DNA from: Pontiella sp.
Lineage (GTDB): Bacteria > Verrucomicrobiota > Kiritimatiellia > Kiritimatiellales > Pontiellaceae
Reading direction: 5' to 3'
Assembly (NCBI GenBank): GCA_050290185.1
Contig: JBNKHE010000004.1
Span: 244,409-308,408 of the forward strand
DNA: 64,000 nucleotides
Of this stretch, positions 18,987 through 37,364 are shown piece by piece. A program made the position numbers and the translations under genes. Each line of letters begins with the position of its first letter. Position 1 is the stretch's first letter. The notes beneath the pieces are model-generated. The model worked only from the letters and a program-made list of their open reading frames with translations. It did no database searches and was not told the origin of the DNA.

Positions 18987-21900
18987 TCAGCGCTTGAGCG
19001 GAAGGAACAGCACGTCCAGTTTCTTCTCTCCGTTTTCCGGATCCTTCTCATAGCGGAACAGACGCCACATGAACGAAAGCTTGTAGTATCCGTTCTTATA
19101 GGAATCGACGGTGATCGCAGGGAAGATGTCCGTGCTCATGTCGCCATTGAGTTTTTCGTAGTGGAACAGATGCCACAGCACGCGCCGGCGGAAATAGTCG
19201 TGCCCCTCTTCTTTCGATTCCTGTTCGTGCCGGGTGTCGTACAGGATGCCCAGCAACGAAGAGGTTTCCAGCCGGCTTCCTGATATACGCCTGTCGTTGA
19301 TGCGATGATGCCACAACGGGAAGAACGATTGTTGTTTTGTGTAGACATGCAATGTACGGGAACCCTCTTTCCGGCCCGCTTCGTAGTCCCAATATTCCGA
19401 TGATTCTCCCAGGGAGAGCAGGTAGTGCAGTTTTTTGGTTTCCTGCACCGTCTGCGTGGTGCCGGCTTTTGCCCCCCGAGTCTTTCCCTTCCCGGTCCAG
19501 TGGTCATAGTCATAGATTCCCAAGAACCCGTGGTTCGAGCGGTTTTCGTTCTTTCTGTAATAGCCCAAAGGGAAATAATAGCCTTGGACCGCATCGGTCG
19601 AAAGGCTTCGCTTGTGCCAGTAAGCCGGGAAAACCCAACTCCCGGATTTACCGCTTCCGATTTCATAGCGGCCCACCAAAGGCGTGGCAAAATAGCTCCT
19701 CTGCCGGTTTTTGCCGTAGATGGCCGAATAGAAATATTTATCCTTCTCCCACAGATAGAACGGCAGGAGATGCGAACCTTCCGTGCCCGACAAGCCCTGC
19801 CGCCAATATCCCAGACCGCCCAGCAACAGATAATCCGTGGATTCGGGGGCCTGACTCCAGCCACTCAGCAAGAGCGGAATGGCATGGTTTCTTCGATTAC
19901 CCGATATCCATGTGGCATAGGGGAGCGACAGAAATGACCCTTCCTCCGGAACGGCGTAGTAGAACGGGAGCACGTAGCTGTAGGAGTATGCTCCGCCCTT
20001 CCGGTAGCCGGCCAACCCGAGCGCAAACGTCCCGCCCGAACTGTCGCTGCCGGTATGCCATCCGCTCAACAGCGGAAGAACCAGATGGTTTTTCCGGTAG
20101 TCGTCGCCCCAGGTGGAATACGGGAGCGAATAGAAGCTTCCGTCCTGCGGGGCGGAATAATAGAACGGAAATACGTAGTGATAGGGATGCTCCGTACCTG
20201 ATCGATATCCGGCCAGTCCGGCGGCGATGATTCCGCGGGACATCCCTTCTTCTGAATACCAGCCGCTCAGCAACGGCGGGAGGAGACGGTATTGCCGGTC
20301 GTCGCCGTTGCGCCATGCGCTGTATGGGAGCGAAATGAAAGATCCCTGTTTCGGGGACGCGTAGTAGAGCGGCGCAACATAGGAATAGTCATTGGGACCT
20401 CCCCGCTGGAAGCCGACCAGCCCCGCCGCCAATATGGCGCGGGTCTTTTCATCCCCGGTTTTCCAGCCGCTCAGCAACGGTGGAATCACGTGGTTCTGTT
20501 TTCCATCATCATCCCAGGTCGAATACGGCAATGAGACGAATGTACGATCCCGGGGAGCCCGGTAGTAGAACGGGAATACATAGTGCGAGCTTCCGGTTTC
20601 ACTCCATCGCTGGGCAGCCAATCCGCCGAGGTAGATGTTGCGCCCGGAATCTGCATTCTTTGCCCCGCCGCTCAACAACGGCAATGCCATCCAGTTTTCC
20701 TGGTCGCCCAGCCGCCAGCGGCCGCCAAGCAACGTCATGAAATGCGCGTCATAATCTTCGTTCACATAGACCAACGGGATATAGCAGCGCCAGGCCAGCG
20801 ATCCATCGTCATGCAGCTTACGGGCATAAAACGGAGTGACCAGGATCGAGCCATCGGCGGATCGGGCGCTGTAATAAAACGGGAAAGAAGCCTTCCACGC
20901 CGTTCCATCCGGATGTTTTTCCGCCATCCAAACCGGCGAATAGAACGAAGAAGAATTTGGCGTATAGTTCCGATAGTAGAGCGGAATGGTCGTGTCCCAG
21001 CCGGATCCATCAGCCTTTTTCCGGCTTAACCACGGTAGGGAATAGAACGACGAAGCCTCGGCCGAAAAGTCCCGGTAAAAGAGCGGAACCGAAGCCTGCC
21101 ACCCGGAACCATCCGCACGCTTTTTTGAGAGCCACGGCAGCGAGTAGAAGGCCGATCCCTCGTCGGAATAGCTGCGGTAGTACAACGGAGCAAGTGCATG
21201 CCAGCCCGAACCATCGGCATACTTCTTCATCCACCAGGGCAATGTATACAGGGATGTTGATTGCGGGTTCGAGCTGTAGAAATAAAGCGGAAACGAGCTG
21301 TTCCAGCCGGTGCCATCGGCATACTTCTTGCGCATCCACGGCAGGGAATAAAACGAAGAATACTGGTCGGAATAGCCATGGTAATAGGCCGGCACAACAG
21401 CACTGAATCCGGAACCGTCAGCCCGCTTTTTCCACCACCACGGCAGGGTGTATAATGCCGTGGCTTCAGGATTGGAGCCGTAGTAGTAAACAGGCAGAAG
21501 ATGGTGATGCCGGCTGTCCGGTGACGAGGCCAGCCCCCCCAATCCCAGGGCATACCAGCTACATGACCAGTCATCCCCCGTGCGTCCCCACGACAAAGCA
21601 GGGAACAGCGTCCAACTGGTGAGGCTCCCTTGCCAGGTTCGCTGCCACAGCGGCAAGGCCAGATCCCAGCTCCTGCCGCCCGGATTTTTCGCCAGGCTAC
21701 GGCTGTAGGGCAACGATAGGAAAGTGGAACGTTGGCCGGTTTTTGCATAGGCGTAAGCCGGGATGACCCAGCTCCCCGAGCCGGCCCTATTCGTATAGGA
21801 GTGGATCAACGGCCATACAACATCGCGTTCAAGAGAACCCGGAGTCTGCTTCATCCCGTAAACCGGCCAGAGGTGCCAGGCATTCCAGGTGTCGTAGCGA

Positions 21901-22388
21901 TGCCGTGCATAGAACGGCCATGCCAGATGCAGCGAGTTGCCGCGTTCCTTGTTCTGCCAGATCCACAGCGGAAACAAGGCATCGTGGCCGGTACCCGCCA
22001 GCGGGCGACCTTCATGCCAGTACAGGGGCAGCACATTGAAATAATCATCACCCCAATAAACCGGAAAGAAACGATAATCCTTTTCAGCGGGAGCGAAGCG
22101 CCCGAGCGGCCACAAGACGTTGTAGACCGGATGGTCCGTGTCCAGGTCGTACGCCGAATACACCGGCCGAACCGCCTGATGTTCCGGGCTGAATTCCATC
22201 AAAGGCCATAGAACAGCCAGTGCGGGATCGCGGTAGTAGACGATGGGCCAAAGATTAAACCGATCCGCAGCCGGACCTTCACGCTTCTCATATTCCCCGG
22301 AATAAAACGGCGTCCCTTTCATAGACGTCGTACTGCATCCGGCCGACAACAACACTCCAACTGCCAGCGGCAGAATCCATTTCTTCAT
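18987..22388 (-). CDS. Large lipoprotein made of aromatic-rich beta-hairpin repeats
   Basis: MKKWILPLAVGVLLSAGC lipobox; dozens of P(L/F)(F/Y)Y / SLP(W/Y) repeats. Confidence 0.85.
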   Translation of the reverse strand: MKKWILPLAVGVLLSAGCSTTSMKGTPFYSGEYEKREGPAADRFNLWPIVYYRDPALAVLWPLMEFSPEHQAVRPVYSAYDLDTDHPVYNVLWPLGRFAPAEKDYRFFPVYWGDDYFNVLPLYWHEGRPLAGTGHDALFPLWIWQNKERGNSLHLAWPFYARHRYDTWNAWHLWPVYGMKQTPGSLERDVVWPLIHSYTNRAGSGSWVIPAYAYAKTGQRSTFLSLPYSRSLAKNPGGRSWDLALPLWQRTWQGSLTSWTLFPALSWGRTGDDWSCSWYALGLGGLASSPDSRHHHLLPVYYYGSNPEATALYTLPWWWKKRADGSGFSAVVPAYYHGYSDQYSSFYSLPWMRKKYADGTGWNSSFPLYFYSSNPQSTSLYTLPWWMKKYADGSGWHALAPLYYRSYSDEGSAFYSLPWLSKKRADGSGWQASVPLFYRDFSAEASSFYSLPWLSRKKADGSGWDTTIPLYYRNYTPNSSSFYSPVWMAEKHPDGTAWKASFPFYYSARSADGSILVTPFYARKLHDDGSLAWRCYIPLVYVNEDYDAHFMTLLGGRWRLGDQENWMALPLLSGGAKNADSGRNIYLGGLAAQRWSETGSSHYVFPFYYRAPRDRTFVSLPYSTWDDDGKQNHVIPPLLSGWKTGDEKTRAILAAGLVGFQRGGPNDYSYVAPLYYASPKQGSFISLPYSAWRNGDDRQYRLLPPLLSGWYSEEGMSRGIIAAGLAGYRSGTEHPYHYVFPFYYSAPQDGSFYSLPYSTWGDDYRKNHLVLPLLSGWHTGSDSSGGTFALGLAGYRKGGAYSYSYVLPFYYAVPEEGSFLSLPYATWISGNRRNHAIPLLLSGWSQAPESTDYLLLGGLGYWRQGLSGTEGSHLLPFYLWEKDKYFYSAIYGKNRQRSYFATPLVGRYEIGSGKSGSWVFPAYWHKRSLSTDAVQGYYFPLGYYRKNENRSNHGFLGIYDYDHWTGKGKTRGAKAGTTQTVQETKKLHYLLSLGESSEYWDYEAGRKEGSRTLHVYTKQQSFFPLWHHRINDRRISGSRLETSSLLGILYDTRHEQESKEEGHDYFRRRVLWHLFHYEKLNGDMSTDIFPAITVDSYKNGYYKLSFMWRLFRYEKDPENGEKKLDVLFLPLKR

Positions 22389-22507
22389 TACACACCCTCC
22401 AATCAACGGTTGATGCCTCCCGCTCCGCCAACTCATCGCAAACTATCACGCTCTTATAGGGATTTTAACAGCCAAAAACGTCGCGAGCTGAATGCGTTTG
22501 ACCTGCC

Positions 22508-26175: not shown

Positions 26176-26379
26176 GCCAGATGGTTTATTCGAAAACCCA
26201 GCCCCTGCCAAGGTTGAACCGCTGGTTCGTCGCCGGTCATTTGCTTCCAAGCCATGCGGATGTTCCGTGAATACGAGGCTTTGATTTGCAAAGCCAATAC
26301 TTTTTCCATCTCAAAAAAAGCGGTTTTTAAAGGGATTTTCGGGCGCTGGAAATAAAAACAAAAATAAATGCGGTTTTCG

Positions 26380-26406
26380 GGTAACGATCTGAATTCCCAC
26401 CTCGTA
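26380..26406 (+). promoter_or_regulatory. Putative ECF sigma promoter 1 (GGTAAC-N17-CGTA)
   Basis: AAC/CGT ECF geometry; duplicated at 29441. Confidence 0.7.
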
Positions 26407-26412
26407 TTCATA

Positions 26413-26524
26413 GTTGAACCCAACAACACCCTATTTGAAGCAAACGCAGCTCAAGTGAACCCAAACCCATTGCGTGCTTCCGATACTTACTCCGAACCCC
26501 GCCTAACCAGCGGGGTTTTATTTT
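26413..26524 (+). ncRNA. Putative sRNA copy 1 (~110 nt) with intrinsic terminator
   Basis: Paralogous to 29474-29579; hairpin with loop CTCAAGTGAACCCAAACC; terminator CCCCGC..GCGGGG-TTTTATTTT. Confidence 0.65.
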
Positions 26525-26566
26525 GCCCGCAACACACGACAGTGCTACGCTTTCCTTTAACTTTTC

Positions 26567-28786
26567 ATGGATGAAAATGGTATGGACGAGTCCGAAAACA
26601 AGGATCAGCAGCCGGAACAAAAAAACAGGCAACCCAACCGGGAGATCGGAAATCCCAACCTCTTTGCCGGCGACATCGTTTTTTCGGATACTGAAAAAAT
26701 CCTTTTCGAAGAGGATTTGCAGGATCAGTCTAAATCCCACGACGATCTGATGGATGGGAATCCGGCCGACCGCTACTCGCCCAACAGAAAACTCAACCAA
26801 GGCGGAATGAAGGCCATCTGGGAAGTCGATGACCACCGTACGGCCCGCAAGGTGGCTATGGCGCTGATTCAGGACTCCAAGATAGCCGCGAAGGAGGACA
26901 TAGATTCATTCCTTTACGAAGCCCGGTTAACGGCAAACCTGCAGCATCCAAACATTATTCCAATCTACGACATCGCCGTCGATGAAGACGGGAATCCCTA
27001 TTTCACCATGAAGGCGCTCAAGGGCGAAACCCTCGGCGAGATCATCAGGAAACTGCACGAAGGCAATAGTGCCTACCGTAAACGCTACACCCGAACCCGC
27101 CTGATCGGCATCTTCCTGAAGGTCTGCAACGCCATTGACTATGCCCATACCAAAGGCGTCATCCATCTTGACCTAAAGCCATCCAATGTCATTGTCGGCG
27201 ATTTCGGCGACGTACATGTACTCGATTGGGGCCTATCCACCTTGATCACCCATCTCAATGAATATGATGGAGAACCCGTTTCGTGGCATAGTATGGACGA
27301 TGTGGCCTTGGAAAATGGTCAGACGCTCACCCGATATCTCGAAAGCACCGCCAAACGCCGCCATGTCGTGGGCGGCACCCCGGGCTACATGTCGCCGGAA
27401 CAGGCCCAGGGATCGCCGGCGGATATCGACTTTCAAACCGATGTCTACATGCTCGGCTCAATGCTCTACGAAATCCTGACCTACCAGTGCCCTATCCTTG
27501 GCGACACGGTCAAAGAAGTCCTTCAAAAAACTGTGCGAGGCGATTTCCCAACACCAACCAAACGCGCTCCTGAACTCCGCATTCCGCAGGCGCTTGCCGC
27601 CATCGCCATGAAAGCCATGCGGACCGCGCCGGATGAACGCTACGCCAATGTCGCCGCACTGATCCGCGACATCCATCAATATCAGGACGGCTTCGCCACC
27701 ATCGCCGAAAACCCAACCTTCTTTACCCACTTTGCCCTACTGGTGCGCCGGCACAAGATGGCGGTCAGCCTGATTGCAGCCTCGGCTGCGCTTATCACAG
27801 TTATTCTGGTGCAGAGCTTCAACGAGATCAAAGCGAGCGAACAGGTAGCGGTCAGCGCCCTGGCCGCGTTGCAGGAAAAAAACGACTATATCGCCGAAAC
27901 GGCCAAGCAGGTGGCCCCGGATTACCTCACCCTCGCACAACGCGAGGAAAGGACCTTTGCTTTCGACGCCGCGGAACAGGATCTAGACCGGAGCCTGGCC
28001 TTCGATCCAAACAATCCGGCGGCATGGAAGCTGAAGCTCCGGATGCTGCTGGCGCAGCAACGTTTTACCGAAGCCCGGGAAATCCTTGAGGGGGAAACCG
28101 GACCGGATGATGACGACGCCCTGCGCAAGCTGGCGCGAAGCAGCGGCTATGCCGAGCCGGTGACGGATGCAGACCTCCCCCGGCTGGCCATCGATTTCCG
28201 TTCGCATGGTATGTCCAGCGGACTCCCGCGCCTGTTCCATCACCTCAACCAGCAACCATTTGATCCGGAAACCCGCTTTCCGGCCCTGGCCGAATCCCTC
28301 AAACAACTCAACCCCAATGTTCAGGAGCTCCATTTTAGCTGGCAGGCAGGCGAACCGAATGGCTGGAACATTGACATTGGAAACAACCCGGGGCTAGACG
28401 ATATTACACCGCTGTGCGGATTAAACATCGTAAACCTCAAGGCCCATAACATCGGCACACCCAACCTTGCCCTGCTTACCGAAAACGGCATGCGCTCCCT
28501 CGACCTGTCAAAGACGCAGTTGAACCATCTGTTCGACCTGGACCAGCTTGCCGGCCTACGGGAACTCAATATCAACGGAACCCGAATCCGCAACATCTCC
28601 AATATCGTAAAGTATCCCCAACTCACCTCGCTCGACATCAGCCATATTGATGGCCTTTCGATTTCGCCACAGCTTGTTTGGTGCCGAAATCTCAAGTGGC
28701 TCACCGTTGCAGAAAGATTCCGCAATGATCCAACCATCCAGTCCCTGGCAAACCGCGGCGTCATTATCATCTACACCGACAACTGA
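26567..28786 (+). CDS. Membrane Ser/Thr protein kinase (Hanks type) with TPR and LRR C-terminal region
   Basis: FLYEARLTANLQHPNI; IHLDLKPSN; DWG; GTPGYMSPEQ; TM; LRR (LRELNINGTRI, LTSLDIS). Confidence 0.93.
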   Translation: MDENGMDESENKDQQPEQKNRQPNREIGNPNLFAGDIVFSDTEKILFEEDLQDQSKSHDDLMDGNPADRYSPNRKLNQGGMKAIWEVDDHRTARKVAMALIQDSKIAAKEDIDSFLYEARLTANLQHPNIIPIYDIAVDEDGNPYFTMKALKGETLGEIIRKLHEGNSAYRKRYTRTRLIGIFLKVCNAIDYAHTKGVIHLDLKPSNVIVGDFGDVHVLDWGLSTLITHLNEYDGEPVSWHSMDDVALENGQTLTRYLESTAKRRHVVGGTPGYMSPEQAQGSPADIDFQTDVYMLGSMLYEILTYQCPILGDTVKEVLQKTVRGDFPTPTKRAPELRIPQALAAIAMKAMRTAPDERYANVAALIRDIHQYQDGFATIAENPTFFTHFALLVRRHKMAVSLIAASAALITVILVQSFNEIKASEQVAVSALAALQEKNDYIAETAKQVAPDYLTLAQREERTFAFDAAEQDLDRSLAFDPNNPAAWKLKLRMLLAQQRFTEAREILEGETGPDDDDALRKLARSSGYAEPVTDADLPRLAIDFRSHGMSSGLPRLFHHLNQQPFDPETRFPALAESLKQLNPNVQELHFSWQAGEPNGWNIDIGNNPGLDDITPLCGLNIVNLKAHNIGTPNLALLTENGMRSLDLSKTQLNHLFDLDQLAGLRELNINGTRIRNISNIVKYPQLTSLDISHIDGLSISPQLVWCRNLKWLTVAERFRNDPTIQSLANRGVIIIYTDN

Positions 28787-28787
28787 C

Positions 28788-29396
28788 ATGGAATCAGAAA
28801 ACTACAATCCAACGCGGGTTACCCTGCTCGCCAAACTGAAAAAGACCGAGAACGACCAGGCGTGGCTCGAGTTCGAAACCATCTACCGCGGCTTTATCCT
28901 CAGCCTGATCCTGCGCATGGGCATCAACTCCGAGGATGCCGAGGATATCAGCCAGGCGGTCCTGACCAAGGTATGGCAGAAGATCGAGGATTTCGAATAC
29001 AACCAGAACAAAGGCAAATTCCACAACTGGCTCGCCGCCATGACCCGCAACACCGTCAAGGACTTCTTTCGGACCAAAAAGAATTTCATCACCGGCCGCG
29101 ATTCGGTCGAATATCAGGAACAATACCTCGATATCGAGGAGCATGTGCTCCCCGGCATCGAAAACCTCGCGCGCGAAGAATGGGTGCTTCACATCACCAA
29201 TCTGGCGTGGGACAACATCAAAGATGGCATCTACGAAAGCAAACGCGAGGTGTTCAAACTCGTATCACAGGATGTCTCTACCCGGGAAATTGCTGAAAAA
29301 CTCGGTATTTCAGAGGCCAGCGTGCGTGTCTATAAGGCCGAGGTCTTTGAAAAAATGCGCACGGAGATCACCCGTCTCAACCGGGAACTAGGCTAA
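28788..29396 (+). CDS. ECF RNA polymerase sigma factor (STK-associated type)
   Basis: N-terminal TRVTLL..L; AW.EF..IY; DAEDISQ; KGKFHNWL; EIAEKLGIS; starts 1 nt after kinase stop. Confidence 0.92.
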   Translation: MESENYNPTRVTLLAKLKKTENDQAWLEFETIYRGFILSLILRMGINSEDAEDISQAVLTKVWQKIEDFEYNQNKGKFHNWLAAMTRNTVKDFFRTKKNFITGRDSVEYQEQYLDIEEHVLPGIENLAREEWVLHITNLAWDNIKDGIYESKREVFKLVSQDVSTREIAEKLGISEASVRVYKAEVFEKMRTEITRLNRELG

Positions 29397-29440
29397 AAAT
29401 ACGGATTTTATGAAAAAATCATAAAAAAAGTCCGGTTTCG

Positions 29441-29467
29441 GGTAACGATCCCCCCTGCACCCTCGAA
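29441..29467 (+). promoter_or_regulatory. Putative ECF sigma promoter 2 (GGTAAC-N17-CGAA)
   Basis: Same TTTCGGGTAACGATC..CCTCGWATT layout as 26375-26408. Confidence 0.7.
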
Positions 29468-29473
29468 TTACTT

Positions 29474-29579
29474 AATGAACCCAACAATTTCATAAGGCAA
29501 ACGCAACGACTCAAGTGAACCCAAACCTGTTGCAGCCAATTACTCCGGCCCCGCCCTAACCCAGCGGGGCTTTTATTTT
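29474..29579 (+). ncRNA. Putative sRNA copy 2 (~105 nt) with intrinsic terminator
   Basis: Paralog of 26413-26524; no downstream + strand ORF, so it cannot be a leader. Confidence 0.68.
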
Positions 29580-29623: not shown

Positions 29624-29659
29624 AAAAGGGAAAGGCCCCGGCTTGCGCCGGGGCCTTTC
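29624..29659 (-). terminator. Intrinsic terminator of the pilMNOPQ-protease operon
   Basis: GAAAGGCCCCGGC-GCAA-GCCGGGGCCTTTC then CCTTTT on minus strand. Confidence 0.8.
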
Positions 29660-29733: not shown

Positions 29734-32700
29734 CTAGTTTCTGACCTCCACCTTGTAGAATCGGCAACCGTCGCTATTCGGGTCAACAATCACCATAGGA
29801 TTGCCATCGCCCGGTTCATCGACGATTAGTTGCTGCCATGTCCCGCCGATTTCGGTGCAATAGTAGACCGTGTAGTAACGACCTGCTACCGAATCAAAGA
29901 CGATATCGCAACCACCTTCAGCAGACGGCTGGATGTCGGAGACATAGAAGTAGGAAGTCGGATCGGTGGCACTGGTGCCGGCAATCACTTCGTCTCCATC
30001 CGGACTGAGGTCACCATCGGTGTCGGAATTCGTTGGATCGTACCCGGCCATGAATTCCTGATAGCTCGTCAGTCCGTCTCCATCGGAATCCGTCTCGAAG
30101 GAAGTAAGCCCGTAATTAATAACGAAACTTTGCAGCGAAGCCGTCAGCGTTGTCCAGGTCTCCCTGGGATCCGTTCCATTGGCAATTTCGACGGTATCCA
30201 ATACCCCGTCGCTATCCGTATCGGCTGACGGATTGACATACTCATAGGCACCAATATCCACCGTATAGTAGGTGTTTGTATCGGCATCCCCATCCAAGGG
30301 ACGCGGCGTATCCTCAATGTCGTACAACGGTGCGCTGTAGTATGTGCCCTTATCCACACAAGGCGACCCAGGCAAGAGGTGATAATTTCCGCCACCGACA
30401 TAATTAGGAGTCGCATCGGTGTTGAAACGGTCCACCACAAAACCATATCCGTCGCTGATATCGCAATACCAAGGATCAAACTGTTTGGAACCCTGACGGC
30501 AATGCAACGAATTGTAACGATCATCCCCGGGTTCATACCGAACCGGACTAAGCCACTCGGCATCATTGCAGTAGTTAGTCCAAATGATGGTATTGCGGAT
30601 ATATTCCACGAAGTTTCCGAGCGATGTAATGCCGCCTCCGCGCGTCATGGCCAGATTCTCTGCCAACGTGCAGTTAATGGTCCGTGCGGAGCAACGAGAG
30701 CCTACGTAGATGCCTCCCCCCAGACCAAAATCGGGATATTCCTTGTTCTCGGGATAATCCAGATCCAATGCGGATGTACGGTTACCGGCAATCACGCAAT
30801 TCTGAACCAACGGCAAGCTTCCGTCCAACAACAGGATTCCACCGCCATTTTCATCATCGTGCGTTTCATCTACCATATCCTCGATCAGGTTCGCAAGTTC
30901 TGCGATATTGGTTGAGGCCATGCGCGATACACCATTATACGTGTAGTAATCTGGAGCATAGTTGCCGGTCACGGAGCACTGATCGATGGTTGGAGAGCTG
31001 TTCTCGCAGCGGATGCCGCCTTGGCAATCGGAAACCGTGCACCCTATGATCTGGGCAGAAGGATCGTTGACCAGCCAGATTCCCCGCCCAATGCCATAGA
31101 TATTGCTGGCATGCTCGATGACCGTATTCCGAATTTCCAATCCGCTGCTGTCGAACACTATTATGCCACCTGCGGCATAGGAGATGGTGCAATCCAGGAT
31201 ACGGGGAGTCGATCCGTCTAAGGCACGGATCGCCACGCCTTCCACGATGTTTGTGATGACGCAGTTCGTTATAACCGGACTCGAATTGAATTCGCAGTAG
31301 ATGGCATCGTCGCGGCAGGTTTGAACAATGCAATCGGCAATGGTTGGACTCGTCGCGTCACGACAGACAATACCATGTTCCTCGCCACATGAGCCATCTG
31401 AACAATCCGTATTTTCCAGCGAAGTTTGAATCGTTACTCCGCGCAATACTGTATCAAGCCCTTGTCCACCTTCAAAGATGAAGCCGGCACCCAGGCCATG
31501 GCTTTTCACAATCGTCCTGGAAACGTCGTTTGTGTTTTCAGCCAAAATGCGGAGCTGAAGAGTCCCGGGATTGATATCGCGGTTTCCAACACCGTAGTAT
31601 TGCCCTTCCTGAATAAGAATAGTGTATCCATTGGAAGCGACATTGATGGCTTCCTGAATCGCATCGAACGGATGGTCGATAGAACCATTTTCGGAAGGAT
31701 CACTCAATTGGGGGTCCTGTGGCTGGCCGCCAAACAGATACCAATCGTATGGGCCATCATCGTTTACAACAACCGGATCGGAGGCATTGGTGGCCTGCGT
31801 ACCCCAGGCAAACTCCCAGTCATCGCTAAATCCGTCGCCGTCAGTATCCACGTTGTCGGGATCGCTTCCGTTGAGATATTCCTGATAGTTCGAGAGTCCG
31901 TCGCCATCATGATCGCCAAAAGCGCCATTATTGGTGTTGATGGTGCCATCATCGAGCGGATTCAAATAGTGGGTTTCCTCCCATCCATCAGGCAATAAAT
32001 CGCCATCCGTGTCCGGATTGTTTGGATCCGTGATATACATGTTGGTAATCGGCATGCCGTTGAATGAGAGCGCCACCCGGAAGTCATTGGTGATTTCCCA
32101 GTTGTCACCCAGTAGATCGTCATCGCTATCGGCTTTATTCGGATTCGTCGCACCGGGATAGTTTACGGCATTGGTAAGTGCATATTCACCCAAATTTGAT
32201 AAATCGAGTCCAGGAATCGAGTTGTCGCCATCAGGATCATCCTGAGCATCATCCACCAGCGGATTCAGGCCATTATCGATTTCCCAACCATCCGGCATAG
32301 CGTCGTTATCCGTATCGGGATTCGCCGGATCCGTCCCCGCCAGGCTTTCTTCCAGATTGGTGGCACCGTCGGAGTCGGGATCGTTGGCGGCATCGTCCAC
32401 CAGCGGATTCAGTCCGTTGTCGATTTCCCACTGGTCGCTCATTCCATCGCCATCGGTATCGGCTTCGAGCGGATCGGTCAGATAGAGGTTGTCCACGCCA
32501 TTGGTCGTCACTTCGTAGTGATCGGATAAGCCGTCGCCATCCGTATCGGATGTACGCGGATCGGTCAGATAGATCTGCACCTCCTGATAACCGTCCTCCA
32601 GCCCATCGGCGTCCTGATCGGGATTCGCGGGATCAAGATTGGCAAGATATTCGCCCCAGTTGATGATCCCGTCCGAGTCGAAGTCGTTCGTGTAGGACTG

Positions 32701-35430
32701 GTCGAGATTTCCAAAATTAACGATCTCCCAGTTATCGTACATACCGTCCTCATCGGAATCGATCGAACATCTGAAGACATGCAATCCCCTGCCCTTGCCG
32801 GCCACATAGGCATAGCCGTTGGCAATGGTGACCCCATAGGCCTCGATGTTGGCATAATGCGTATAGGGCGTGATATCGCTCAGGTCGGATGCATCCATGA
32901 TACGCAACCCTTTCGCCCCATCGGCCATGTAGAGCAACCCATCGAAATAGGCCACGTCCTCGGCCGAACCGGGGGTATCAGTGCCACCCAGCTTGGTCTT
33001 GGCTGCGTTGTAAACCAGTGCGCCATATTCCTGCAGCGCCACATACAGCTTGTTGTTCTCTGCAAACACAGCCGCACAGTTCCTGTTGCCATCGCCATCC
33101 GCAATGGATTTAGCCGAATAGGTCGATGACTTGGCGGATGTCGCAATCTTTCCAAGGCCACCGTACATCGCCATGTAGACGGATCCTCCGACCAGCGCCA
33201 CATCGTTGACCTTGAAATTCGGATCGCCGTTGCCGGAAAACGAAGCGGTCACGTAGGCACTGCTCGGGTTGGATATATCAACTACCGTCAGACCGTTGGA
33301 AACGGACGCCAGATAGGCAAACCCGCCACCCACATCCACTTTGGAAGCGGGAACCGAAACCGAGGACAGCAACACAGGATCCGTCGGGTCGGAAACATCC
33401 ACGACGAAGAATCCGTTTTCAGCATCAGCCACATAGGCATAGTCGCCATCCACCCTCACGCCCCGGACCGAGCCGGAGGTGGAATAGGATCCCACCAACT
33501 CCGGATTTTCCGGTTGACTGAGACTTAGTATTTTGAGGCCGAATCCACCGTCGGCTACATAGGCATATCCGTTGGCAACCACGACATCGTACGTATCGAG
33601 GCACTGGCTGTTGAAGCCCAGATATTGCAGCTTCGGCAACGTACCCATAACATCGCGAGGATTGAATCCGTAGCGGATCTCCCAGCCATCAATCAAACTG
33701 TCGTCATCCGAATCCGGATCATTTGGAATACACGCGCTCTGGTATTCCTCAAGGTTCGTCAGAAAATCGTTGTCGCCGTCAAGCAGCGCATCGAGTGGAT
33801 TGTTTGGATCCAGCCCATAGTTCTCTTCCCACGAATCGGGGATGCCGTCCTTGTCGGAGTCGCTGGCGCTGGCAAACATGGCAAAAACATTCATGCGTCC
33901 GCCCGAGACCACCTTTCCAGCCAGAACCGGAAGCTCATCAACACTATCCAGCAAGACCTGCTTGGCCTCCGCCGGAGAGATATCCGCATTCAGGCTGATC
34001 AACAGCGTCATCGCACCTGCTACATGGGGACAGGCCATGGAGGTGCCCTGAAGCGTTTCCGTCCCGCCATCGAGATAGGTACTGACAATATTCACACCCG
34101 GTGCGGCCAGGTCCACCGAATTGGCTCCGTAGTTTGAAAATGTCGCCAGATTGTCGTTTTCGTCGGTCGCGGCCACGGCAATGACATTGGGCAAATCATA
34201 GCTGGCCGGATACTGCGGGAGCGAATCGTTATCCGACGAATCATTGCCGGCGGCGGCCACAAAAATGCAACCCTGCTCATTGGCATATTCGACCGCATCA
34301 TAGATCGTCTGGCTGTAGCCCGTACCCCCATAGGAATTCGATAGCACCTTGGCTCCATTGCGGGCCGCGTAGCGGATACCATCGACGATATCCGAATCCA
34401 GCAGGCCCTCTTCGGTTCCAACGCGCACCGGCATGATCGAAGCCGTCCAGCAAACCCCAACCACCTGGTTGGCATTGTTCCCGACTGCGCCGATGGTTCC
34501 GGCGCAATGCGTTCCATGGCCGTCGCTATCATTGGGGTCGTCGTCGTCGGACACAAAGTCCCAGCCATTGATATCGTCCACATATCCGTTTCCATCGTTG
34601 TCCTTACCGTCTCCGGGGATTTCGATGCTGTTGATCCACAGGTTGGCCTCCAGATCGGGATGATCCAGATCCATGCCGGTGTCGATGACGGCAACCACCG
34701 CATCACTGCTTCCGGTTGTGATATCCCATGCATCGGGCATGGAAATCTTGGGCATACCCCAAAGGTTTCCGTACATCGTATCGTTGGGAACAGCCGTAAG
34801 GTGGCGTACATAATCGGGCTCGGCATAAGCAATCGACCGGGCTTCGGCCGCAAAGTATTCAACGGCCTGTTCGACCGCATCAAGTCCGGGGGCTTCGAGC
34901 CGGACAATGAAGGTATCACCATCGGATAATGTGCGAACCACGGTTGCGTTGTATTGCGCAACCAGTTCCTTTAATTCGTCCGCCGAGCTCCCCTCGCGGA
35001 GATGAACCAGTACATGATCGGCAACCATTTCCATCCGGCCGACTGGAACTAACTTCCGCTGATCAGGATCCTGGCGCAATGTTTCCGTTACAATCCTGTT
35101 CGGATATTTTCCGGTGCGCTGTACCAGCCTCCGGGATTCCACATCCCCGTTGCTCAGCATGGTTTGACGTTCTGCAAGAACCTTGGATCCATCCACCATT
35201 GCGGTGCCATTGAATGCTGCACCACCCAATGTTTCAGCGTCCAAGCCCGCTGACGGGGCCGTTGCACTCACTGATTGGGGTTCGGAATCCGTTTGCCCGC
35301 TGATGATCGTGGTTCTCGGCCCCGCGAAGTAGTATATCGCAACCCCTGCCACGAGTAACGCAGCACCAGCCATCGGCCATCCAAAAAACTTCTTTTTCAC
35401 AACTGCTCCCATCTTGCCGTATTCCGCCAA
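29734..35430 (-). CDS. Giant multidomain S8 protease: N-terminal TM, prodomain, subtilase, LVIVD repeats, TSP3-like Ca-binding repeats, beta-helix/choice-of-anchor-Q-like region, C-terminal RFYKV domain
   Basis: VAVIDTG, GHGTH, GTSMACP; YAYVADG..GL; DSDGDGL.D..E repeats; YHLLPGSPCVDKG..DIGAYE; start may be ATG 35412. Confidence 0.92.
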   Translation of the reverse strand: MAEYGKMGAVVKKKFFGWPMAGAALLVAGVAIYYFAGPRTTIISGQTDSEPQSVSATAPSAGLDAETLGGAAFNGTAMVDGSKVLAERQTMLSNGDVESRRLVQRTGKYPNRIVTETLRQDPDQRKLVPVGRMEMVADHVLVHLREGSSADELKELVAQYNATVVRTLSDGDTFIVRLEAPGLDAVEQAVEYFAAEARSIAYAEPDYVRHLTAVPNDTMYGNLWGMPKISMPDAWDITTGSSDAVVAVIDTGMDLDHPDLEANLWINSIEIPGDGKDNDGNGYVDDINGWDFVSDDDDPNDSDGHGTHCAGTIGAVGNNANQVVGVCWTASIMPVRVGTEEGLLDSDIVDGIRYAARNGAKVLSNSYGGTGYSQTIYDAVEYANEQGCIFVAAAGNDSSDNDSLPQYPASYDLPNVIAVAATDENDNLATFSNYGANSVDLAAPGVNIVSTYLDGGTETLQGTSMACPHVAGAMTLLISLNADISPAEAKQVLLDSVDELPVLAGKVVSGGRMNVFAMFASASDSDKDGIPDSWEENYGLDPNNPLDALLDGDNDFLTNLEEYQSACIPNDPDSDDDSLIDGWEIRYGFNPRDVMGTLPKLQYLGFNSQCLDTYDVVVANGYAYVADGGFGLKILSLSQPENPELVGSYSTSGSVRGVRVDGDYAYVADAENGFFVVDVSDPTDPVLLSSVSVPASKVDVGGGFAYLASVSNGLTVVDISNPSSAYVTASFSGNGDPNFKVNDVALVGGSVYMAMYGGLGKIATSAKSSTYSAKSIADGDGNRNCAAVFAENNKLYVALQEYGALVYNAAKTKLGGTDTPGSAEDVAYFDGLLYMADGAKGLRIMDASDLSDITPYTHYANIEAYGVTIANGYAYVAGKGRGLHVFRCSIDSDEDGMYDNWEIVNFGNLDQSYTNDFDSDGIINWGEYLANLDPANPDQDADGLEDGYQEVQIYLTDPRTSDTDGDGLSDHYEVTTNGVDNLYLTDPLEADTDGDGMSDQWEIDNGLNPLVDDAANDPDSDGATNLEESLAGTDPANPDTDNDAMPDGWEIDNGLNPLVDDAQDDPDGDNSIPGLDLSNLGEYALTNAVNYPGATNPNKADSDDDLLGDNWEITNDFRVALSFNGMPITNMYITDPNNPDTDGDLLPDGWEETHYLNPLDDGTINTNNGAFGDHDGDGLSNYQEYLNGSDPDNVDTDGDGFSDDWEFAWGTQATNASDPVVVNDDGPYDWYLFGGQPQDPQLSDPSENGSIDHPFDAIQEAINVASNGYTILIQEGQYYGVGNRDINPGTLQLRILAENTNDVSRTIVKSHGLGAGFIFEGGQGLDTVLRGVTIQTSLENTDCSDGSCGEEHGIVCRDATSPTIADCIVQTCRDDAIYCEFNSSPVITNCVITNIVEGVAIRALDGSTPRILDCTISYAAGGIIVFDSSGLEIRNTVIEHASNIYGIGRGIWLVNDPSAQIIGCTVSDCQGGIRCENSSPTIDQCSVTGNYAPDYYTYNGVSRMASTNIAELANLIEDMVDETHDDENGGGILLLDGSLPLVQNCVIAGNRTSALDLDYPENKEYPDFGLGGGIYVGSRCSARTINCTLAENLAMTRGGGITSLGNFVEYIRNTIIWTNYCNDAEWLSPVRYEPGDDRYNSLHCRQGSKQFDPWYCDISDGYGFVVDRFNTDATPNYVGGGNYHLLPGSPCVDKGTYYSAPLYDIEDTPRPLDGDADTNTYYTVDIGAYEYVNPSADTDSDGVLDTVEIANGTDPRETWTTLTASLQSFVINYGLTSFETDSDGDGLTSYQEFMAGYDPTNSDTDGDLSPDGDEVIAGTSATDPTSYFYVSDIQPSAEGGCDIVFDSVAGRYYTVYYCTEIGGTWQQLIVDEPGDGNPMVIVDPNSDGCRFYKVEVRN

Positions 35431-35456: not shown

Positions 35457-37364
35457 TTAGTCCAGTTCCGCGAGCTCAGCGTTTGCCGAATCCTGCTTCT
35501 CTTGTTCTTTGCGGAGGATACGTTCCCGTTCCTCGATGCGCTGTTGCTCTTCGAGTTTCATCATCTTCAGCATGTCGTCAAGCTTGTCGTTTTCTTCCGA
35601 CTCGTAATACTCGCGGCCATGTTCGCGAAGGATGCGGGAGTTGCGATCCTGAATAACCTGGCGACGAGCCAGCTCAGCATCGGACGGCATGCCGGTATCC
35701 GAATCAAGGTTCTGTGTATTCGCCAGTCCGACCGTAACGAAGATGATGGTCTCATCCTGTCCGCGTACAGTCTGCTCCCAAGAGAAAAGCCGTCCGAGCA
35801 ATGGAATACTTCCCAGCAACGGAACCTTGTGTTCTTCTTCCGACTCGGTCACTTCCGTCAGACCGCCGATGGCCGCCGTCTGCCCGCTGGCCAGATTGAA
35901 AACGGTCTGAATACTTTTCTCGTCGATGATGGGATACGTATTGTCCCCGGCCTGTTTATCGGCAAACTTGCGGGTTAGCGAGGGCTGTATCCTCACCGTG
36001 ATGTTGCTCGACGTGTTGATCGAAGGGACCACATCCAGCTTGATGCCGTATTCGAAGAAAGGCTCTTTCTCGTCTAGGGTGAAGGTGATGGTATCCGGCG
36101 TATCGTTCAGCGCCTGCTGACGTTCCTGCCTCAAGTTCGGCTCCTTACGGATGATCGAAATGTTGGCCGGTTCTTCATTGGCCACGATAATTTTCGGATT
36201 CGATACAATATTCACGCCTTTGTTTTGCTCCAGAGCGCTAAGTATCATTCGGAATTCGTCGGCACTCAGGACACTGGTAAACACCTCTTCCCGGCCCTTG
36301 ACCGAGACATCCTGCAACGCAGGCGTCACGCCTTCGAGGGTAAAGATGCCGGATCCGGGATTACGCTGCCCCCCATTCGCATAGCCACCGGCATCCTCAT
36401 AGGCATTTCCAGCGACGTCGCGGAACGTGTTTGCCGTAGTGGAATCCGTTTTAGTGCGACTAAAGCTTTTCGTGGTGGCACCCGAGGAACCGAGGCCATA
36501 GCCCTGCAGAACGGACCAGTCGACGCCAAGATCCTTCTGCGCGTCGTCGGTCAGCTCCATGAACTTGGATTCAATGTAGACCTGCTGGCGAACCGTATCA
36601 ATGGAGGAAAGTACTTCGCGAACCTCGCCTAGGCTGGACTCGGTACTCTTCACCACCAGCATGTTGCGGGAGGCAAACTCGGAGATCGTGGCGTTTTTGG
36701 GCAAGAGCTGCCGGATGAGTTCGGCGACGTTGGGAACCGTGGCATATTTCAGGATAAACGTTTCAACAACCTGCGGCTCCGGCGCACCGGCCGGGCGGCG
36801 GCGGACGCTGTAGACATTAGATCCGGCAACGCGCTGGTAGAGTTCATAGTCGTACGTATCGAGGATCGACTGGAGAGCCGGGCGCCATTCAACATCCTTG
36901 AGATTTACTGAAATCTGGGAAGCTTCGGTGAGCTCGGGCACGATAATGTTTGCGCCGGAAAGCTGGGCGAAGAGGGTGATGGCTTCATCAAGTCCCACCT
37001 TATTCAGGCGAACGGAAATCAGGTTTTCCGTGGTCATGCCCATGCTGTTTTCAGAGTCGCTCGACATACTGAGGTTGTCCACCTGATCCGCGTCCTCCGG
37101 GTCGCTCGCATCGGAGTCATCCATAACCACATCGACCTCTTCGGCGCCCTCCTCGGCAACAACTGTTGCCTCTTCCGCCTGGCTTGAAGGTGTGGTGTCG
37201 GCAGGCGCAGCCTCTGCCGATTCAGCGGGTTGCTGATTCAACTTATTCAACAGGTTCAGCAGATCCTGGTCCTCAACCTTCTCTTGCTGTGCCTGAACCA
37301 TCGTCACTGCCAGTACAACGACTGCAGTTGCGACCCAAAATCTGGCTATTGTGCATGTTCTCAT
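35457..37364 (-). CDS. pilQ: Secretin (PilQ/GspD family)
   Basis: QVYIESKFME..DLGVDW; SNPKI; GQTAAIGGL; KVPLLGSIPLLGRLF. Confidence 0.9.
   Translation of the reverse strand: MRTCTIARFWVATAVVVLAVTMVQAQQEKVEDQDLLNLLNKLNQQPAESAEAAPADTTPSSQAEEATVVAEEGAEEVDVVMDDSDASDPEDADQVDNLSMSSDSENSMGMTTENLISVRLNKVGLDEAITLFAQLSGANIIVPELTEASQISVNLKDVEWRPALQSILDTYDYELYQRVAGSNVYSVRRRPAGAPEPQVVETFILKYATVPNVAELIRQLLPKNATISEFASRNMLVVKSTESSLGEVREVLSSIDTVRQQVYIESKFMELTDDAQKDLGVDWSVLQGYGLGSSGATTKSFSRTKTDSTTANTFRDVAGNAYEDAGGYANGGQRNPGSGIFTLEGVTPALQDVSVKGREEVFTSVLSADEFRMILSALEQNKGVNIVSNPKIIVANEEPANISIIRKEPNLRQERQQALNDTPDTITFTLDEKEPFFEYGIKLDVVPSINTSSNITVRIQPSLTRKFADKQAGDNTYPIIDEKSIQTVFNLASGQTAAIGGLTEVTESEEEHKVPLLGSIPLLGRLFSWEQTVRGQDETIIFVTVGLANTQNLDSDTGMPSDAELARRQVIQDRNSRILREHGREYYESEENDKLDDMLKMMKLEEQQRIEERERILRKEQEKQDSANAELAELD

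Follow-up and report, generated by a model that had tools for sequence, protein, structure and literature searches.

The 64,000-nucleotide stretch of Pontiella sp. DNA analysed here (assembly GCA_050290185.1, contig JBNKHE010000004.1, positions 244,409 to 308,408; hereafter the window) carries on its forward strand a two-gene operon for a membrane Hanks-type serine/threonine kinase and an extracytoplasmic function (ECF) sigma factor, with a block of non-coding DNA on either side of it. An original prediction had taken the two blocks for ECF-driven genes of sibling small RNAs (sRNAs) that match no described family. Our computational analysis supports that reading, and suggests in addition that the RNAs pair with the leader of a distant operon encoding a secreted protein and a PEP-CTERM protein.

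The blocks lie at 26371-26524 and 29433-29579, and every element ascribed to them was found in its place. They are paralogous, with 70% identity over 176 columns (blastn E 1.75e-13 in a within-genome search). The promoter claimed for both, AAC-N17-CG, proved to be GGGTAAC followed, after a 17-nt spacer, by CGTA or CGAA. Ahead of RNA1 this ECF-type promoter occupies 26379-26406 on the plus strand (-35 GGGTAAC at 26379-26385, -10 CGTA at 26403-26406), and the RNA itself, of about 112 nt, would run from 26413, a purine 7 nt past CGTA, to 26524. Along it stand a 5' motif, GAACCCAACAA (26416-26426), a hairpin (26437-26480) with its loop at 26450-26467, the sequence UUACUCC (26487-26493) and a U-tailed terminator (26494-26524). 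RNA2, of about 106 nt (29474-29579, plus strand), follows GGGTAAC-N17-CGAA at 29440-29467 (CGAA from 29464) and repeats the series, with GAACCCAACAA at 29477-29487, a hairpin at 29495-29537 with its loop at 29510-29527, UUACUCC at 29540-29546 and a U-tailed terminator at 29548-29579. The RNA2 terminator loop holds AACCCA, where that of RNA1 reads AACCA. As predicted, the 18-nt hairpin loop, CTCAAGTGAACCCAAACC, is identical in both copies, and the stems, which differ in sequence, both pair. Folding z-scores are -5.0 for RNA1 and -1.8 for RNA2, and the conserved AACCCA-type motifs are predicted to be unpaired in both. RNA2 was rightly said to have no downstream gene on its strand: the nearest plus-strand gene call is 11.7 kb away, and the terminator at 29630-29659 (minus strand), which is separate from RNA2, belongs to a convergent subtilase gene. 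No third full copy was found in the genome (G000); a loop-like stub at G000:C2:160882-160919, lacking promoter and terminator, lies 190 nt ahead of a 151-aa gene.

A covariance model built from 13 copies finds this family of genes, about 100-125 nt long, in 48 of 53 Pontiella genomes, including 22/22 of high quality, at one to four copies per genome, many of them away from the kinase-ECF operon. In a 150-genome sample of the phylum, model matches were confined to Pontiella, apart from one weak match judged spurious. A GTDB-wide pattern scan returned 79 loci: 59 with a complete RNA, scoring 62-153 bits, and 20 that score no more than 21 bits; the labels of the 59 are Pontiella, Pontiellaceae, Kiritimatiellales or Verrucomicrobiota, including two Lentisphaerae and one 'uncultured bacterium'. 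On this sampling the family is restricted to Pontiella. Its anatomy was counted in 81 distinct copies, after three weak matches judged spurious (L083, L117, L118) had been dropped. TAAC-N17-CGTA is exact in 76 of them, with a variable spacer sequence; 76 copies have two or more ACCCA motifs and 62 have three or more, AAGTGAACCCA is found in 55 and ACTCC in 77, and the spacing between motifs within the RNAs varies freely. Of 69 copies, 28 have ATG as the triplet that overlaps the 5' motif and 19 have GCG; because this triplet is so often not a start codon, the RNAs have no conserved open reading frame (ORF). Across 84 model-fitted sequences, which include the three spurious ones and whose fit to the model favours structure, 92.5% of cells are paired, against 80.0% when shuffled and 37-49% when slid, and two-sided changes occur at 17 of 17 pairs. 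A loop-terminator pairing that appeared in an RNAalifold consensus of a mixed MAFFT alignment was rejected, as terminator variants break it and keep the terminator.

The paralogues fall into type A ahead of the kinase, type B behind the ECF, a B-like type ahead of a DEAD-box helicase and type C behind fusA; a third paralogue type keeps AACCCA and has not kept AAGUG. Copies off the operon (L015-L020; L121, L086, L119, L120, L122, L127; L281) stand directly ahead of a DEAD-box helicase gene, behind fusA, or ahead of a superoxide dismutase gene, these genes being identified by their sequence motifs, and tandem duplicates occur in L020, L023 and L027. A reversed-sequence control matched RNA genes because the type B loop (e.g. 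L022:2200-2341) is a perfect 15-nt mirror repeat, ACCCAAGTGAACCCA. Four small genomes (G024, G008, G183 and G020) carry a divergent RNA pair that retains the promoter, ACCCAC in the loop and ACUCC; in all four a conserved non-coding block, ACTGAATGAATG...CCGCCCCGAG...CTCCTCGGCAGC, precedes the RNA promoter (L152, L153; also L144, L151).

The idea of sibling, stand-alone non-coding RNA genes is thus supported by their own promoter and intrinsic terminator, covarying structure, unpaired motifs, lack of a conserved start codon, spread through the genus, co-occurrence with the ECF orthologue and conserved predicted target. Nor does any described family match them: Rfam 15 gave 0 matches at gathering score in the window, an E-value scan of four loci gave sub-threshold terminator matches only, none of them on the window copies, and we found no paper on a kinase-ECF-sRNA system, subscription papers lying outside our coverage. 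We consider, on these comparisons, that the RNA family is real and undescribed.

The kinase (26567-28786, plus strand, 739 aa; the true start is perhaps the ATG at 26582) has a Pkinase domain at about residues 71-359, a single transmembrane segment at 398-416, TPR and weak LRR repeats, and intact HLD202 and D220WG motifs. Alignment to PknA, its closest solved relative, places Ala99 at the position of the beta3 lysine and Lys82 at the last glycine of the Gly-rich loop. This WNK-like arrangement, seen as GGMK plus VAMA, is present in 34 of 36 distinct kinase segments, the remaining two being canonical, unrelated kinases. It is common to paralogous kinases beside other ECF genes of the genus (L051, L052) and may possibly mark a whole kinase clade of the Planctomycetes-Verrucomicrobia-Chlamydiae (PVC) phyla; the alternative to WNK-like activity would be a pseudokinase. 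A structure model computed without an alignment reached a confidence (pLDDT) of 36 and was unusable.

The ECF gene (28788-29396, plus strand, 202 aa) has the generic TIGR02937 as its best NCBIfam match. Its DAED motif (residues 50-53) is intact, and D50-A-E-D53 is kept in nearly all orthologues shown. A single-copy orthologue with 73-94% identity is present in 46 of 53 genus genomes and in 22/22 of high quality; outside the genus, ECF matches were found in 4 of 146 class members, none above 37% identity. Ser55, two residues past DAED, is invariant in the orthologues and absent from paralogues, and Thr9 is invariant; both are candidate phosphorylation sites. The operon consists of kinase and ECF only, with no RseA-type anti-sigma gene beside the ECF.

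The original prediction noted that ECFs are often autoregulatory; for this ECF, autoregulation is not supported. The operon has its own sigma70-like promoter, TTGCCC-N17-TACGCT with a TG extension, at 26523-26551 (plus strand), which begins in the U-tail of RNA1 and so stands behind the RNA1 terminator. It scores under the threshold of a generic promoter scan; TTGCCC-N17-TACnnT with the TG extension is nevertheless present ahead of the kinase at 22 of the 33 loci tested, and at 11 of those 22 no RNA lies upstream. Since the operon has this promoter with or without the RNA, we take RNA1 for an independent gene and not a leader; autoregulation of the ECF is unlikely. The bracketing of the operon by two RNA genes is real in the window and is not obligatory elsewhere, as the upstream RNA is missing from 16 of the 19 loci that could be read in a set selected for being exceptional, and the downstream RNA at 14 of 36 ECF loci. 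In the other 22 (14 of 28 loci parsed plus 8 further loci, all positive), a promoter+RNA unit directly follows the ECF stop codon, and in each of the two deep lineages the operon is flanked by such units. No RNA was found at paralogous ECF loci.

The output of the promoter appears to be narrow. A weight-matrix scan of G000 recovered the two RNA promoters only (27.8 and 27.1 bits), the next site scoring 16.1 bits and being intragenic. Among 26 promoter-pattern matches in five well-assembled relatives, 13 were RNA genes and the other 13 lay inside long ORFs; the reversed control gave 23 matches. No coding regulon of TAAC-N17-CGTA is visible in G000 and these five relatives, weak sites being possible, and the ECF regulon looks purely non-coding. 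Neither ECF nor RNA was found in G184, G199 and G187 (61-87% complete), and reduced genomes with 3-7 sigma70-r2 matches keep the ECF with an RNA-type promoter beside it. The promoter is presumably read by the kinase-linked ECF.

The predicted target lies outside the window, at G000:C1:562640-563449 (minus strand), where a secreted protein is followed by a PEP-CTERM protein. Just past a sigma70-like promoter, the leader starts with a hairpin, UAAGUG-GAAUGGGUU-CACUUA, and then runs on to AGGAGUA. This 5' hairpin (UGGGUUCACUU) is complementary to the RNA loop, and the Shine-Dalgarno (SD) sequence GGAGUA to the UUACUCC of the RNA. The loop complement GGTTCACTT occurs no more than 60 nt from 4 of 2560 starts in G000, where 0.43 would be expected. 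When these 2560 genes are ranked by loop pairing, with the cost of opening included, the target comes 4th; adding SD pairing puts it 1st, and it is the sole G000 gene with both TGGGT and GGAGTA. The RNA loop and the leader are predicted to form a duplex of 11 bp with 2-4 additional pairs (-21 kcal/mol), and the predicted pairing of UUACUCC with the SD has an energy of -9.8 to -12.6; the 11-bp extension explains the conserved AAGUG in the RNA loop.

These sites are conserved where the proteins are not. TGGGTTCACTT is kept in 17/17 readable main-lineage orthologue leaders, the proteins being only 28-43% identical to that of G000; TGGGT and AGGAGTA are invariant in 18/18 aligned leaders, and the leader hairpin is 99% paired. 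The secreted-protein and PEP-CTERM operon is found across the order, in 54 of 89 genomes. Of 27 homologous leaders from G184 and G199, from the sister genus and from three further families, all lineages in which no RNA was detected, none has the hairpin site, and TGGGT and GGAGTA are present in 2 of 27 each. The divergent lineage has GAGUGGGUCUGC in the targets of G020 and G024 and GCAACCCAC in the RNAs. The main-lineage loop pairs at -18.8 with the main leader, -11.4 with the divergent one and a mean of -8.1 with the 27 outgroup leaders, and the divergent loop at -14.1 with the divergent leader and -8.6 with the main one. RNA and leader site shift reciprocally in the divergent lineage, each loop fitting its own lineage better. 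On these comparisons, the predicted sRNA target is strongly supported.

In 12 of 18 loci a second, long hairpin lies about 200 nt upstream; its stems covary and its loop is again UGGGUU. In G000 it lies behind its own sigma70-like promoter (C1 ~563650-563720, minus strand; L223:1676-1780), and it may belong either to a longer leader or to a separate decoy RNA. In G021 (L013, L222), the RNA loop variant AAGCGAACCCA exactly matches the upstream hairpin UGGGUUCGCUU of the same genome. In the sister family (L255, L256, L258, L262, L270, L274, L277-L279), a different conserved motif, ACTACGTATTGACACGTA-N6-TACGTAT, stands ahead of this operon, which suggests that it has another regulator there. Genome-wide, the short seed complements TGGGTT and GTTGGGTT showed no enrichment around starts. 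The 3' end of 16S rRNA was not found in the assembly.

The target protein is secreted, 208-271 aa long and mostly beta, with an internal two-fold repeat (model pLDDT 77). It matched no Pfam or NCBIfam family, only hypothetical Atlas clusters and no solved relative by sequence, and its model had no Foldseek match at E<=0.001 and a best VIA Z of 4.3; the fold thus has no assignment, and an S-layer role is at most a possibility. The second gene matches TIGR02595 (PEP-CTERM) above cut-off, and a pattern search counts 17 PEP-CTERM-like proteins in G000. The two operon genes rank 211 and 37 of 2567 on codon bias, which suggests high expression. PEP-CTERM proteins have been tied to exopolysaccharide-associated sorting and floc formation, and we suggest that the target proteins may be a major cell-coat component. 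As to RNA-binding proteins, Hfq (PF17209), CsrA (PF02599) and ProQ had no match in the genome, which is 95.5% complete, and KhpA/B and one RRM protein are encoded.

We suggest the following mechanism. Transcription of the kinase-ECF operon would start at a housekeeping promoter of its own. With its TPR/LRR part the kinase would sense an extracytoplasmic signal and switch on the ECF, probably by phosphorylation, and the ECF would then transcribe solely the one to four sibling sRNAs from their TAAC-N17-CGTA promoters. These would pair in trans with the leader of the operon for the beta-rich, two-repeat secreted protein and the PEP-CTERM protein: unpaired AACCCA would kiss the UGGGU loop of the 5'-terminal mRNA hairpin, the RNA loop AAGUGAACCCA would lengthen the pairing to 11 bp and displace the 5' arm of that hairpin, and UUACUCC would mask the Shine-Dalgarno GGAGUA(A). 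With translation blocked and the protective 5' hairpin lost, the surface-protein operon would be shut down with no need of Hfq. That stand-alone sRNA genes pair with the target leader we hold with good confidence. The full chain, from kinase through ECF and sibling sRNAs to repression of the operon, we favour with moderate confidence. Only tentatively, at somewhat less than even odds, do we propose its most far-reaching form, in which a WNK-like membrane kinase activates an ECF that transcribes nothing but sibling sRNAs, the leader is recognised by loop-loop kissing and SD masking with the second hairpin as an extra site or decoy, and the sigma factor acts as a pure cell-coat repressor in marine, polysaccharide-degrading Kiritimatiellales.

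Several observations weigh against this repression mechanism. Of the 22 high-quality genomes, 13 showed the leader site; in 8 it was not found, and in the remaining one the leader is interrupted by the end of the contig. The 13 include all four with at most 10 contigs; in the others no gene was found, or it was truncated, or only a homologue lacking the site was seen. Such homologues occur in G023, G178 and G201, and two of them resemble a paralogue in G000, where a second secreted-protein and PEP-CTERM operon without the leader site lies at C8:156092-157385. The main-lineage site is nearly invariant and therefore offers little covariation, and the reciprocal shift, seen in two targets of one clade, amounts to one evolutionary event; kin genomes in the conservation counts are likewise not independent. 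One outgroup leader reaches -13.4 with the divergent loop by chance. SD pairing is generic, GGAGTA being found at 52 of 2560 genes, and the central loop and UUACUCC are not collinear-antiparallel with their two leader sites, whereas the AACCCA of the terminator loop is, although RNA1 has AACCA in that loop.

Other candidate targets fared poorly, which likewise weighs against the mechanism. A Dabb gene was rejected, its site being kept in only 3 of 30 loci. C1:30537-32474 and C1:193549-197301, the latter another Ser/Thr kinase beside a sigma factor gene, have 13- and 12-bp loop complements in their leaders and come top on loop pairing alone; no conserved 12-mer was seen for them, nor, at the loci inspected, a conserved TGGGTTCACTTG ahead of other genes, and they are possible species-specific targets. 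On the signalling side, the RNAs are unlinked from the operon in one subclade. Since G000 carries 17 sigma70-r2 genes, we infer the assignment of the promoter to this ECF from linkage and co-loss. The missing beta3 lysine of the kinase and the DAED kept by the ECF, unlike the phospho-activated EcfP, mean that phospho-activation, though plausible, can only be inferred.

The rival that survives best keeps the same RNAs and target and reverses or softens the effect: pairing at the 5' hairpin would stabilise or activate the operon, or the upstream hairpin would be a separate decoy by which the sRNAs are titrated. It is indeed at the 5'-terminal hairpin, and not at the SD, that the strongest duplex (-21 kcal/mol) is predicted; in the upstream hairpin the stems covary and the loop sequence alone is kept; and FoxJ, a sigmaE sRNA, activates targets too (PMC11005410). 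However, the leader hairpin leaves the SD exposed, so that opening it would bring no translational gain, and UUACUCC is conserved together with its GGAGUA match, which is present in 18/18 aligned leaders against 2/27 in the outgroup. No terminator is visible past the upstream hairpin. We think a positive or buffering effect unlikely.

A CsrB/RsmZ-like role, in which repeated AACCCA titrates KhpA/B or the RRM protein and the leader complementarity is secondary, would suit the three or more ACCCA motifs of 62/81 copies, displayed in loops, the presence of genes for KhpA/B and RRM proteins, and a third paralogue type that retains AACCCA without AAGUG. A sponge should nevertheless mimic the mRNA site, and the leader instead holds its exact complement; the conserved AAGUG is accounted for by the 11-bp extension, CsrA was not found, and the repeats are ACCCA, with GGA repeats absent. 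We judge a sponge improbable.

We think it just as improbable that the RNAs are real and their promoter is read by another of the 17 sigma70-family factors, the kinase-ECF pair being merely a neighbour. Part of the genus has its RNAs at sites away from the operon, the motif does not stand directly ahead of the operon itself, and other ECFs persist in reduced genomes. Against this, promoter+RNA units adjoin the operon on its flanks in each of the two deep lineages and directly follow its stop codon in most ECF loci, and ECF and RNA are missing together both in the three incomplete genomes named above and outside the genus.

To a fourth reading we give little credence, namely that GAACCCA is a double-stranded DNA operator of some regulator, common to the RNA genes and the promoter region of the surface-protein operon, and that the RNAs do something else. 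RNA complementarity is DNA identity on opposite strands, and altered protein specificity would also yield a reciprocal change. Yet each motif sits in a hairpin loop with covarying stems, its orientation is always sense in the RNA genes and antisense in all target sites, the spacing between motifs varies freely, and an operator leaves the separate SD complement unexplained. Finally, the notion that copy 1 is a cis attenuator or leader of the kinase operon (it ends 42 nt ahead of the kinase ORF, and its GAACCC could pair with the 3' arm of the terminator), or that the blocks are mobile repeats or small ORFs, is largely refuted, as the operon promoter lies past the terminator and is kept with or without the RNA, terminator variants disrupt the alternative pairing yet keep the terminator, copy 2 has no gene behind it, and the few copies per genome each have a promoter and share no conserved start codon.

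The surroundings of the operon hold further genes. Convergent on RNA2 is the subtilase gene (29734-35430, minus strand), whose 1898-aa product has LVIVD, beta-helix and TSP3 repeats; a secretin gene (35457-37364) is next past it. At 18987-22436 (minus strand) a lipoprotein-like ORF of 1149 aa has aromatic repeats of 34 and 67 aa and no Pfam family.

Among known systems, kinase-associated ECF groups include ECF43 (EcfK/PknS, EcfP/PknT), ECF59, 61, 62, 217 and 283 (PMC7826278; PMC8999054). As in these, the Pontiella ECF adjoins a membrane Ser/Thr kinase with no anti-sigma factor in the operon; the Pontiella kinase differs in being upstream, of TPR/LRR type and without the beta3 lysine. ECF43 has STTA in place of DAED (PMC8999054), so the Pontiella ECF, which keeps DAED, is not a member, and ECF59/61/62/217 are listed as 100% Planctomycetes (PMC7826278), whereas the Pontiella ECF is from the Kiritimatiellales. 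The promoter motif of ECF61 is given as 'not conserved' (PMC7826278), which is consistent with the lack of autoregulation here. That classification, as far as we had it, assigns no promoter or regulon to the kinase-associated ECFs of the PVC phyla, and the word sRNA is absent from its main text (PMC7826278). WNK kinases have a replaced beta3 lysine and a lysine at the end of the Gly-rich loop/beta2 (PMC12599244); the Pontiella kinase is bacterial Hanks-type and PknA-related, and its active site resembles theirs in sequence.

If our reading is correct, a promoter can be specified precisely for one kinase-associated PVC ECF, along with its output and a predicted target, in what is apparently an ECF-sRNA circuit with an all-RNA regulon, and attention is drawn to a clade of bacterial kinases whose active site is WNK-like. 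It would also place a PEP-CTERM operon under post-transcriptional control and provide a signal-controlled off-switch for the cell coat, and the sRNA-target pair is a rare one with visible reciprocal change. Listeria LhrC1-5 resemble the Pontiella RNAs in their several paralogues, repeated C-rich unpaired seeds and pairing at the SD region, and no homology between the two was detected; LhrC is driven by a two-component system and uses UCCC. CsrB/RsmZ, for their part, combine GGA loop repeats with CsrA, whereas the Pontiella RNAs have ACCCA repeats and their genome no PF02599 match.

Closer is the sRNA arm of proteobacterial sigmaE, in which MicA/RybB/MicL turn an activating sigma factor into a repressor of envelope mRNAs (PMC9546586). 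These sRNAs are Hfq-dependent, and their sigma factor has an RseA anti-sigma and more than 100 coding targets, whereas Pontiella has no Hfq match and no RseA-type gene at the operon. If true, our findings would carry the 'non-coding arm' principle into a third phylum and to sigma factors under kinase control, in an extreme form in which no coding regulon was found. Nearest of all, and Hfq-free, are FoxI/FoxJ of Fusobacterium nucleatum, sigmaE-dependent sRNAs that repress abundant envelope-protein mRNA without Hfq (PMC9546586; PMC11005410). No sequence relation to them was found; the F. nucleatum sigmaE has a large coding regulon, whereas none was detected for the Pontiella ECF, whose partner is a Ser/Thr kinase, whose predicted target is an operon for a secreted protein plus a PEP-CTERM protein rather than a porin, and whose sRNAs are predicted to recognise it by loop-loop and SD pairing. 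Both systems nonetheless present two sRNAs with ECF promoters, a host without Hfq and, by prediction in Pontiella, an mRNA target of envelope type, and we regard the non-coding arm of sigmaE, as represented by FoxI/FoxJ, as the closest working analogue of the circuit proposed here.

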